Source of the DNA: Thermotogota bacterium
GTDB lineage: Bacteria; Thermotogota; Thermotogae; Petrotogales; Kosmotogaceae
Assembly: GCA_034660555.1 (NCBI GenBank)
Contig: JAYEJL010000147.1
Span: 1 to 38,572 of the forward strand
Length of the DNA: 38,572 nt
Direction: 5' to 3'
Position 1 is the stretch's first letter. Every line of letters begins with the position of its first letter. Below are positions 1 through 1,937 of the stretch, in pieces. The notes below the pieces were generated by a model. That model made no database searches. It was not told the origin of the DNA and was given only the letters and a program-made list of their open reading frames with translations. The position numbers were made by a program, and so were the translations under genes.

Positions 1-230
1 CCATTGGAGTGATATTCTCTCGCTTCTTTTGACCTCTTTGGTTCCAACAGATAAACCCTTCTCTCTTTTTGTAATAAATAATCGCTGATCCTGTTGAAAG
101 TTTCCTCAATTACAAAAACAGCATCTTTTGTCACTGTTTCTAGTAATTTCTCAAAACCTTCTACATTATCTGTAATCTTAAATGATTTCTCTTTCTCCAT
201 AGAATAGCAAGCATGAAAGTACTTTGACCA
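1..230 (-). pseudogene. IS110 family transposase, N-terminally truncated fragment (partial at window edge)
   Basis: Manual translation: WSKYFHACYSMEKEKSFKITDNVEGFEKLLETVTKDAVFVIEETFNRISDYLLQKERRVYLLEPKRSKEAREYHSNG. This fits the IS110 pattern (GID)WSK..H, ..N...GFEKL, V.IE, VY...P. There is an in-frame TGA at 245-243, no GID motif, and no start codon or RBS before W. Confidence 0.75.
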
Positions 231-233
231 AAT

Positions 234-413
234 GAGTACAGTTCAATTGATGTAGCGTTCCTGGGTTTCCCCGGATATCCCACTATAGGTCCTTTTGTAC
301 TCCCAGAAAGGAAGAGGGAGAATGAAGGCAAGTCACTCATTGGTGAATCTCAAGGAAGTTCCTCTCTTTCTTCTGACTGCCTCCTCTATTGTACTCCTAC
401 ATCTCTAGAGGAG
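234..413 (-). ncRNA. Putative IS110 bridge RNA (three consecutive stem-loops)
   Basis: Inverted-repeat pairs: 381-388/406-413 (perfect 8 bp); 360-375/304-321 (long, imperfect, closing a large loop); 296-302/234-240 (perfect 7 bp, closing a large loop with an apical hairpin at 259-275). The region lies directly upstream of an IS110 transposase. Confidence 0.6.
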
Positions 414-510
414 AATATAATAGCGAGAAGCCGAGAAGGTTTTAAATATTTTGTTATTGGTGATTCAGAAGCAATAAGGAATAGTGTACATTGATTAGAA
501 ATGTATTAAC

Positions 511-545
511 AAACCCTGTATCTTTTTAGGATACAGGGCATTTTT
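511..545 (-). terminator. Rho-independent terminator after the ade-xdh-PLP operon (possibly bidirectional)
   Basis: CCCTGTATC (514-522) / GATACAGGG (530-538) 9-bp stem, followed by TTTGTT on the minus strand and CATTTTT on the plus strand; about 20 nt after the stop at 558. Confidence 0.75.
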
Positions 546-557
546 ATGGAAGTATTT

Positions 558-1937
558 CTAATTTTCCTTGCGATATTCCAGCAATAGTTTATCGATTTTT
601 TGTACTTCGTTTTGTTCTTTTTTCCAGAATTCTTTGGTTTTTTGTGAATCGAGTTCTTCGACGGTTTTATTTTGCTGCTCTACCCATGTATAGTACTTTA
701 AGTTGTGCCAGCGTTTTCTGTTGTCCATGGTGCCCTCAAATATCCAGTCTGTTTTTGCATCAAGGAACATTGATTCATAGCGGTGTTTTGCTTCACTTTC
801 AGTTAATTCTCCGTAATCCTTTGTCAACTGATCCATTACCGTTCTGTAGCGATCAATATTATCTGTTGCGATGGTTACAATATTGTCTTCAGAGGTCATG
901 TTGTAGTATTTTGCCATTTTTATTGCGCCGATAATGTTAGCCACACTTGAGATACCAAGTGTCTTTGATAATACTTCAACATCTTTATCCTTAAGAAGTT
1001 TCTTAAGGAATGTTTTTCCAACAGGATCTGTTAGAACCTGAAGCATTTTCTTTGATTCAATGTCATCAACGGCGACAACTGCGTCATTATTCATTACATT
1101 GTGTATCCATGTGACATGCTTGTCTCCAATACCCTGTATATCATGTCCTCCGTAGCCATTAAGTGAAATCGTGGGACACTGTATTGGTTCAAGGGCTACG
1201 TTTTTTGTGTCGGGAAAAACTTCTTTTATTCTGTCTCCACAGGCAATGGTTCCACCGGAACCTACCCCGGCTACAACAGCAGCTATTCGACCATTACCGA
1301 GTTTCAGCTGTTTCATTAATTCCAGTATGGTATTTCCCGTAACGTAATAATGGAACCTATAGTTTCCAAATTCGGAAAACTGGTTGAGTATCCTGACACG
1401 ATCGGGGTCTGCAGCCTTCAGTTCCTTTGCTTTGTCATATATTTCTTTAACATTGGATTCGCAACCGGGTGTTGCTATTACTCTGGCTCCATATTCTTCA
1501 ATTAAATCAAAGCGTTCTTTAGACATTTCTTCCGGGAGAATAACTACTGTGTCAAACTTCATCCTGCATCCTACCCAGGCTCCACCGATGCCGTAATTTC
1601 CAGTAGAAGGCCAAATGAGAGTATGGTAGCTGGGATCAACTTCCCCTTTTAGAACAAGTTCCATCAAAATGGAATATGTGGCACCCACTTTATGACTTTC
1701 ACTTGGAAATTCAGAACCATAAAGGTAAATTATATTTGCCTCAACGCCGGTTAATTCTTTTGGTAAAACGACGTAATAAACCTCATTATTGACATTTTTC
1801 CATGTAATGTTGTAAAGATTAATCGGATCGAGAGGATCCTTATTTCGCATTTCCCATGCCTTTTTACGAATATCTGGATTAATTTTTTCAGGATGAAGCA
1901 TTTCTTCAAATGTTGGTCCTAAAACAAATTTCTTCAT
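558..1937 (-). CDS. PLP-dependent enzyme, fold type II (cysteine synthase/tryptophan synthase beta superfamily), extended form
   Basis: SHKVGATY (PLP lysine), PSTGNYG, NQF, GVGSGGT phosphate loop, IQGIG. The ATG overlaps the xdh TAA (TAATG). Confidence 0.85.
   Translation of the reverse strand: MKKFVLGPTFEEMLHPEKINPDIRKKAWEMRNKDPLDPINLYNITWKNVNNEVYYVVLPKELTGVEANIIYLYGSEFPSESHKVGATYSILMELVLKGEVDPSYHTLIWPSTGNYGIGGAWVGCRMKFDTVVILPEEMSKERFDLIEEYGARVIATPGCESNVKEIYDKAKELKAADPDRVRILNQFSEFGNYRFHYYVTGNTILELMKQLKLGNGRIAAVVAGVGSGGTIACGDRIKEVFPDTKNVALEPIQCPTISLNGYGGHDIQGIGDKHVTWIHNVMNNDAVVAVDDIESKKMLQVLTDPVGKTFLKKLLKDKDVEVLSKTLGISSVANIIGAIKMAKYYNMTSEDNIVTIATDNIDRYRTVMDQLTKDYGELTESEAKHRYESMFLDAKTDWIFEGTMDNRKRWHNLKYYTWVEQQNKTVEELDSQKTKEFWKKEQNEVQKIDKLLLEYRKEN

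Follow-up and report, generated by a model that had tools for sequence, protein, structure and literature searches.

A probable bridge RNA in the noncoding left end of an IS110-group element from a Thermotogota lineage

The window analysed here, a 38,572-bp stretch of DNA, forms the start of contig C147 in the genome assembly of a Thermotogota bacterium (G000, 188 contigs). A gene for a PLP enzyme (558-1937, minus strand, Pfam PF00291) ends in a terminator hairpin at 513-539, and about 110 nt beyond this terminator, at 403, begins sequence that is common to many loci and extends to the contig start. Two minus-strand features lie in this shared sequence. The first, at 403-234, is very probably the noncoding left end of an IS110-group element of about 1.5 kb and encodes its bridge RNA, and the second, at 3-230, is the remnant of a recombinase gene that covers residues 8-83 of a 429-aa protein and is truncated by the contig start. 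The nearest related records are metagenome-assembled genomes of Kosmotogaceae, Petrotogales and Thermotogaceae.

The recombinase was identified through its full-length relatives. By itself, the window's 66-aa frame (3-200) gave no IS110 match and no PF01548 in Pfam, and a PF01548 search across the source genome returned one 19-bit match on contig C114, below the cut-off. Searching 61 related genomes with the 66-aa fragment gave matches in 11, including the source genome, and revealed open frames of 423-457 aa in seven genomes besides it, with 88-95% identity over the fragment. PF01548 and PF02371 scored above their cut-offs in all four representative full-length relatives, and the NCBIfam model NF033542 (“IS110 family RNA-guided transposase,” cut-off 140 bits) matched both relatives tested with 162.7 and 175.4 bits. 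Since these domains are carried by relatives of which one (locus L007) is 94.7% identical to the window over residues 8-83 (tblastn), the gene beside the RNA is that of an IS110-family recombinase. The PF01548 domain that the first-pass annotation named as a condition for the adjacent frame is found in the full-length relatives (4/4) and not in the fragment alone. A profile search of the genome contigs with the protein alignment recovered only the four loci known from the genus.

The relatives fall into four sequence subgroups, with A comprising the window's genus, B comprising genomes G007 and G011 and two metagenome contigs, and C and D comprising 3-Mb genomes plus most metagenome contigs. 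Alignment with the genus copies and with four copies in the complete genome G007 places the start of conserved element sequence at GATGTAGG (window 403), while at the other end identity ceases with ...TTGACATAGT(G/A)GGTGA. Elements of groups A and B measure 1491-1515 bp, with about 215 nt of left end preceding the start codon and about 20 nt of right end following the stop codon. This corresponds to the layout of the IS110 group (long noncoding left end, short right end), and by eye the two ends show no long terminal inverted repeats. Where contigs from public sequencing runs diverge from the window, the divergence lies at 403-405 and at 358, the start of the variable loop described below.

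Outside the element, identity among copies ends at 403, and the host flank at 404-439 (minus strand) represents one half, the left, of a REP-like repeat of the host. The pattern of this repeat (ATTCTCCTCT, a 3-5-nt loop, AGAGGAG, then a GC hairpin and AGGTGTGT) has 13 matches in the source genome vs 1 in a reversed-sequence control, and the final 36 nt or so of the left flank recur elsewhere in the genus, often close to contig ends. An orthologous empty site was identified in genome G004 (locus L036), where the repeat runs uninterrupted as ...TTCTCCTCTAGAGA|GAAGTGTCACG..., which indicates that the element was inserted in the loop of a host REP-like hairpin. The empty-site comparison proposed in the first-pass annotation thus supplied the target, and the alignment of copies supplied the boundary. 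Other copies of the lineage occupy different repeats, such as CCGAGAA-type tandem arrays in G007.

This boundary changes the reading of two features that had been assigned to the RNA and its promoter. The hairpin CUCCUCUA/UAGAGGAG, previously taken as the 5' unit of a three-unit RNA, has its 5' arm at 413-406, in the host flank and outside an element that starts at 403. The CUCCUCUA arm is present in 1 of 10 distinct group A/B junctions, namely the window's own. The apparent hairpin is the orphaned left arm of the host hairpin, in chance pairing with UAGAGGAG inside the element. The TATTAT at 422-417, proposed as a -10 box, also lies in host flank, and a promoter scan found 2 promoter-like sites there vs 1.1 ± 1.0 in shuffled sequence. 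For annotation, the consequence is that the hairpin and -10 at 406-422 belong to a host repeat and that the window copy is a defective element.

Within the element, alignment to a covariance model reveals four helices arranged as two stem and internal-loop modules. The target-binding module is closed by outer stem 1 (helix 1, 375-361 with 318-304, minus strand) and carries an inner hairpin, UCAC-CAAUGA-GUGA (helix 2, 346-333); the donor-binding module is closed by outer stem 2, GAGUAC/GUACUC (helix 3, 302-297 with 239-234), and carries an apical hairpin, UCC-GGG-GAAA-CCC-A-GGA (helix 4, 275-259). The GUACUC arm at 239-234 is the final conserved structural element of the RNA. Helix 1 comprises 14 pairs, of which 8 changed on both sides, with 99.8% of cells paired; the window has a single A.C mismatch (369 with 311) where relatives have G-C. 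In helix 2, three of four pairs changed on both sides and one pair samples AU, GC, CG, and UA, while the outermost pair fails to form in 25 of the 33 sequences. The six pairs of helix 3 are 100% paired, and two of them switch jointly (AU to GC and CG to UA) in group D. Helix 4 is 99.5% paired, and groups C and D have longer stems of different but still paired sequence.

The covariance model (R1) was seeded with 9 group A/B sequences from a set of 19, with the structure read from the sequences; a MAFFT alignment misplaced gaps of the first stem in groups C and D, and the seed was therefore limited to A and B and the other sequences were aligned by the model. R1 gave full-length matches at E ≤ 3e-8 in 50 of 53 sources; 49 of these matches adjoin the recombinase gene on its upstream side, and the one in L055 lies near the far end of its locus. 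The three exceptions are L027, whose 5' half is replaced, L074, which is cut by the end of the locus, and L064, in which the protein match begins at residue 84. Across the 49-row alignment (33 distinct rows), 97.2% of 973 cells are paired in the true register vs 36.4-53.2% in a control that shifted the partners by 1-3 columns. Both bases have changed in 14 of the 30 pairs (covariation score 0.416 vs 0.06-0.08 in the shifted control). These counts all come from an alignment that the model fitted to the structure and hence favour that structure. These observations were further supported by RNAalifold, which on a plain MAFFT alignment of the 19 sequences returned parts of all four helices (19 pairs, 6 compensatory) and on the 49-row alignment returned the same four helices unprompted (30 pairs, 15 compensatory).

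The structural support is comparative and not thermodynamic, since the single-sequence fold suggested as a check is at chance level (minimum free energy -55.1 vs a shuffle mean of -57.5, z +0.53, with 134 of 200 shuffles folding at least as well). The support comes instead from the search for homologous copies and the covariance model. The long stem read by eye at 360-375 with 304-321 is placed at 375-361/318-304, where it closes a loop of about 42 nt, and this stem, the GAGUAC/GUACUC stem, and the apical GGG-GAAA-CCC hairpin are all conserved and covary among the 33 distinct homologous sequences. Two of the three units first described are thus conserved modules, while the third is host DNA. 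No Rfam family matched; the five hits returned (E up to 10) are unrelated and far below their gathering scores, and the library may lack a bridge-RNA family. The 5' stem-loop of the published bridge-RNA consensus is absent as well, with no conserved pairing predicted between the TACAAT at 393-388 and the first stem. Only about 12 nt separate the -10 box from the first stem, which leaves no room for a 5' stem-loop in this lineage.

The pattern of variation also bears on whether the region might encode a small protein. A 59-aa frame at 161-340 on the minus strand appears in a mechanical list of open frames; this frame spans the junction of a 53-bp deletion at 231 (discussed below), the 53 extra bases of the relatives are not a multiple of three and break it, and variation in the region is compensatory in stems and not codon-like. 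A coding role for this frame is scarcely credible.

The two sides of each internal loop could be assigned to DNA by comparing copies. In the target-binding loop, the 5' side lies at 360-347, with the left-target guide at about 356-348 (TCCTTGAGA), and the 3' side, the right-target guide, lies at 332-319 (reverse complement AGAATGAAGGCAAG; both minus strand). In groups A and B, the 5' side of this loop reproduces the left flank of the copy that carries it together with the first bases of the left end, reading CTCTTGA-GAT in L009, GAGAACC-GAT in L010, AAGAACC-GAT in L054, GAGAATCC in L007, and GAGAGTCC in L018, with L008 matching at 7 of 8 positions. The mean longest common substring between left flank and loop side in these groups is 8.1 for cognate pairs vs 4.44 for non-cognate pairs. 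None of 5000 permutations reached the observed sum in groups A and B, and 202 of 5000 did so in group D, while group C gave no significant signal for left guides (811/5000), all of these permutation figures overstating independence in that the copies are kin. Two variants of the loop, GAGAACC and GAGAGTCC, occur within genome G007, and each of them adjoins its own matching flank.

On the 3' side of the same loop, the reverse complement reads TGA, and the bases behind it tend to agree with the right flank beyond ...GGTGA. With the same overstatement of independence from kinship, this right guide shows a clear signal in group C (mean 1.83 vs 0.50 non-cognate, 15/5000 permutations), a weak signal in groups A and B (mean 2.30 of 4 vs 1.71, 182/5000), and no signal in group D in the register used (2924/5000). 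The window's own guides fit the site of their copy poorly. The left guide matches its flank at 6 of 9 positions, and none of the 7 in-register positions of the right guide agrees with the right side of the G004 empty site, where a 4-nt match (GAAG) arises only after a shift by 2. A perfect cognate target was not found in the source genome, where 620 sites have at most one mismatch to the 9-nt left guide and the best perfect-left site matches at 6 of 9 positions on the right; a site on contig C157 matching at 8/9 and 8/9 is at about chance level (about 0.8 expected by our estimate).

The donor-binding loop corresponds to the element's own ends. Its 5' side (296-276, minus strand) contains the left-donor guide ATAGTGGG at 286-279, and its 3' side (258-240) contains the right-donor guide CTACATC at 255-249. 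The 5' side equals the subterminal right-end sequence in every subgroup, namely ATAGTGGG in A, ATAGTAGG in B, TATGATAAG in C, and ATAGTAGAA in D, and the right end of the source genome's copy on contig C60 reads CATAGTGGGTGA. On the 3' side, the reverse complement of CTACATC, GATGTAG, equals left-end bases 1-7 in groups A and B; the corresponding reverse complement is GTTGTAG in group C, whose left end starts GTTGTAG, and CTGTTTTG for GTTGTTTG in group D. Both sides of this loop therefore co-vary with the element ends across the four subgroups.

These correspondences separate a guide RNA from a cis-acting 5' leader that would control translation or stability of the recombinase mRNA and have no guide role. 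The structure does lie directly upstream of the coding sequence, with no terminator-like site before the gene in a scan of the window or, by eye, before the relatives' start codon, and small RNAs were once proposed to modulate recombinase expression in the case of ISPpu9, as mentioned in Durrant et al. (PMC11208160). Such a leader would have no reason to carry loop sides that copy flanks and element tips and change with them, and the loops as well as the stems are informative parts of the RNA. We consider this explanation very unlikely. The bridge-RNA reading proposed in the first-pass annotation for a Thermotogota IS110 left end is upheld by the relatives' domains, the two-loop architecture, and the loop-side matches.

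Comparison of guides and junctions further suggests where strands would be exchanged. A probable core dinucleotide GA, at 403-402 (minus strand), comprises the first bases of the conserved left end and would mark the crossover point. In bridge RNAs as described by Durrant et al., each of the four guides includes the core dinucleotide. Here GA stands at both junctions of group A/B copies (flank-GA-TGTAGG..., ...GGGT-GA-flank), both 3'-side guides contain it when read as reverse complements, and so do those left guides that are contiguous (L009, L010, L054, and the window). At 4 of 10 distinct A/B junctions (L007, L008, L018, and L045), AT replaces GA in the 5'-side guide, giving CC-AT for DNA CC-GAT, and the left-donor guide likewise reads ...GGG-AT vs DNA ...GGG-TGA. 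From these sequences we infer the GA core and its register for groups A and B. No single core register could be fitted to all groups; in group D the left junction has GT and the right junction has GC.

A promoter formed on circularisation would fit both ends of the element. The TACAAT at 393-388 (minus strand) is the likely -10 box of a junction promoter, its T-A-n-A-A-T being invariant in 19 sequences, and in the integrated copy a promoter scan of the window found no -35 hexamer upstream of it. In groups A, B, and D, a conserved TTGACA is found 10 nt short of the right-end tip, and TACAAT lies 8 nt after the core in the left end. Arithmetic on these sequences, counting one GA, gives a circle-junction spacer of 18 nt between TTGACA and TACAAT (17 in copies whose left end is 1 nt shorter). 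A promoter reconstituted from right-end TTGACA and left-end TACAAT is thus predicted and fits the known IS110 junction promoter (PMC11208160); no circle junction was found among the loose ends of the public-run contigs.

By analogy with IS621, excision would join the right end to the left end at the GA core and thereby place TTGACA 18 nt upstream of TACAAT. Transcription would begin a few bases downstream, near 381, and pass through the two stem and internal-loop modules. In the first (375-304), the 5' side of the target-binding loop (about 356-348) has the top-strand sequence of the left target and would pair with the bottom strand, whereas the 3' side (332-319) would be complementary to the top strand of the core plus the right target. 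In the second (302-234), the donor-binding loop would recognise the element's two ends in the same manner, through ATAGTGGG at the right-end tip and through CTACATC, which is complementary to the GATGTAG that opens the left end. A DEDD/Ser recombinase bound to both loops would then be expected to exchange strands at the core.

The state of the copy in the window requires separate consideration. The RNA is complete, scoring 200 bits over the full model length with four helices and both donor guides intact. Relative to all close relatives, a 53-bp deletion has its junction at 231 (230-232, minus strand, 1-nt microhomology). The missing segment starts three bases after the last stem and comprises the AGGAGG ribosome-binding site and, from the ATG on, codons 1-7 (MEVVGID), which include the invariant Asp7, the first catalytic Asp. 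The earlier description of this locus as apparently intact therefore holds for the RNA and fails for the recombinase gene as assembled, whose start and first catalytic Asp are missing and whose frame runs off the contig; this bears on whether the element is active and not on its family membership. With such a gene, any activity would need a recombinase from another copy. Contigs from all four public runs are undeleted at 231, and none of the pieces listed shows the deleted junction. The deletion, which lies within about 230 nt of the contig end, may be private to the window copy or may be an error near that end.

Elsewhere in the assembly, no complete IS110 recombinase gene was found. Two fragments are present, with the C-terminal 42 residues and a right end located at the end of contig C60, and contig C12 bears a truncated left-end remnant that keeps only the -10 box and the target-binding module. 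Contigs C147 and C60 were considered as two sides of one insertion, and this pairing found no support. The C60 flank (GGGCATTAG...) is unlike the right side of the G004 empty site, and a blast search with the 381 nt downstream of that site gave only dispersed repeats, none of them on C60.

These findings allow for the possibility that the RNA family is real while the window copy is a dead relic, its RNA and protein both now inactive. Such a state is suggested by the deletion of the ribosome-binding site, ATG, and Asp7, by the one A.C mismatch in the outer stem together with a left guide matching its own flank at only 6 of 9 positions, and by a source genome with no complete recombinase gene assembled and a second, truncated left-end remnant on C12. 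Conversely, all helices and donor guides have survived at full length, undeleted copies exist in public runs holding this stretch, so that recombinase could come in trans, and the deletion, being near a contig end and absent from the other-run pieces listed, may be an assembly error. Taken together, we regard a dead relic as a serious possibility, although not the favoured one, and 403-234 as very probably bridge-RNA-encoding sequence in either case.

The RNA and its element closely resemble described systems. Durrant et al. (2024, PMC11208160) predicted a bridge RNA for 85.7% of the elements in the IS110 group, and in the strand pattern described there for IS621 and its orthologues, the 5' loop sides match the top strand and pair with the bottom strand over 8-9 nt, while the 3' sides are complementary over 4-7 nt. 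As in the published description of IS621 and the IS110 group (PMC11208160), the RNA lies in a long left end upstream of a DEDD/Tnp recombinase gene with a short right end, and it consists of two stem modules, each with an internal loop, of which the first varies and the second is conserved. Its 5' sides likewise carry left-target and left-donor top-strand sequence and its 3' sides the complement of the right target and of the right donor, the predicted -35 and -10 boxes are split between right and left ends, and the target is a repeated extragenic hairpin. Unlike IS621 as described there, this RNA is without a 5' stem-loop, and the probable core is GA here and CT in IS621. The recombinase, at about 429 aa, also differs in that the NCBIfam model spans residues 3-371 and leaves a C-terminal tail of about 58 aa. 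IS1111-group bridge RNAs share the recombinase family and the guide logic according to the same paper, and differ in being encoded in a long right end with long subterminal inverted repeats. The present RNA comes from the left end, and only about 20 nt of right end follow the stop codon.

Two further reports offer comparisons of target and of RNA length. ISPpu10 of Pseudomonas putida is described as inserting at a conserved intergenic repeat with a GC-rich stem-loop beside the RNA-matched site (bioRxiv 10.64898/2026.03.19.712850), and the element in the window likewise has a repeat as its target, with a GC hairpin adjoining the insertion point. Unlike ISPpu10, which is reported at one conserved repeat, copies of this lineage also lie in other repeats, including the CCGAGAA-type arrays of G007. 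CazIS110-1 of Caloranaerobacter azorensis is an IS110 element with a bridge RNA for which a role is reported for a truncated RNA with the target-binding loop only (bioRxiv 10.1101/2025.10.25.684509); by its description, this RNA is like the remnant on contig C12, with its -10 box and target-binding module, which may be debris.

One might speculate that the lineage represents a naturally minimal bridge system. Such a system would work without a 5' stem-loop, in about 150 nt from transcript start to last stem, and with a left guide that tolerates or uses a skipped core base (CC-AT for CC-GAT), as the donor guide also does. The sites of such a system would lie in the loops of REP-like hairpins, with DNA structure possibly gating insertion as proposed for ISPpu10, and its target loop would be rewritten within single genomes to follow different host repeats. 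We consider this extension rather unlikely.

Across the genomes of the phylum that were sampled, the RNA model is confined to one family. R1 matches 10 of the 24 further genomes from the family to which the window belongs, and 126 genomes drawn from ten other families gave no match. Literature searches for IS110 in Kosmotoga, Mesotoga, Petrotoga, or Thermotogae gave no bridge RNA in the titles or abstract starts among the matches listed, of which PMC5398504 was the only one to pair “IS110” with a Thermotogae term. At least three Thermotogae proteins are included in Supplementary Table 1 of PMC11208160, and the two rows compared by eye are unlike this recombinase.

Given that bridge RNAs are widely predicted and that REP-type hairpin targets are known, the RNA adds to a known class and does not constitute a new one. 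The candidate new recombinase scaffold seen in the first-pass annotation stands as a very probable bridge RNA, while a usable scaffold would need to be taken from intact relatives such as L007, L009, or L010. What is added is a lineage-restricted bridge-RNA subfamily with guides, ends, and likely core mapped, hosted by bacteria from brine, oil-field, and subsurface metagenomes, and the overall picture of these elements is unchanged. The subfamily provides 33 distinct natural variants, including copies in the same genome with differing target loops that match their own flanks, and these variants are useful for comparing guide-register rules and for choosing orthologues.

The host sequence flanking the element at window 404-439 belongs to a REP-like repeat comprising two hairpins and following the pattern ATTCTCCTCT-N3-5-AGAGGAGTACCGCG-N3-4-CGGGGAGGTGTGTG, of which further examples are located on contigs C2, C8, C22, C46, C73, C76, C159, C176, and C188 of the source genome (G000). 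This pattern was matched 13 times, compared with a single match in the reversed control. Copies of the repeat in related genomes were also observed near contig ends, as would be expected if the element had often inserted in such repeats. In the host hairpin repeat, the right arm (AGAGGAGTACC; compared at loci L037 and L040) has AGGAGTAC in common with bases 4-13 of the element's left end (GTAGGAGTAC, window 400-391), and the right side of the donor thus resembles the right side of the usual target. A separate repeated sequence follows the PLP-enzyme gene, where a 23-nt stretch of its terminator region (window 524-546) recurs elsewhere in the source genome at 91% identity. In several contigs (C31, C76, and C80), the recurrence lies ~320-350 nt from an end, and other contigs carry it internally.

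The recombinases of the relatives (L007, L009, L010, and L011) are ~429 aa long, with residues 3-371 covered by the IS110 model, and their end (...TVSGSLSP) retains the same residues across group A, the genus of the window, and group B, which includes the complete genome G007. The codons for these residues lie directly upstream of the right-end tip bearing TTGACA, the candidate -35 of a proposed junction promoter, and the stop codon abuts or overlaps this box; the conservation may act at the DNA level. In a close relative (L008, G001:C52), the recombinase frame ends after 325 aa and no right end was found in a search downstream, and this locus is a further defective copy within the genus.

The left end takes a different form in group C, where it is ~40 nt longer and begins with GTTGTAGATATA (L012, L013, L020, L021, and most group C metagenome loci). 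Within this longer end, a TTGAAT precedes TACAAT by 18 nt, and the element itself thus holds a complete promoter-like pair. The group C RNA may be independent of circularisation.

Partial and altered forms of the RNA-encoding region were also observed. A truncated left-end remnant (L076, G000:C12:21791-21926, minus strand) retains the -10 box and the entire target-binding module, diverges beyond them, and has no recombinase gene after it. This remnant may be mere debris; according to the preprint on CazIS110-1 (bioRxiv 10.1101/2025.10.25.684509), RNAs with the target-binding loop alone do have a role. In a group D copy (L027, G021:C1, ~2.80 Mb), unrelated sequence has replaced the first half of the RNA, namely the promoter region, first stem, and left guide, while the remaining RNA and the gene are retained.

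The target loop itself varies among the copies in G007 (L010, L018, L023, and L026), whose left flanks are, in all four cases, tandem arrays of 7-8-nt units (CCGAGAA or CCGAGAGT), and the matching loop variant is found in the copy that follows a ...GAGAGTCC unit. These loop variants, matching different units, constitute natural retargeting inside one genome.
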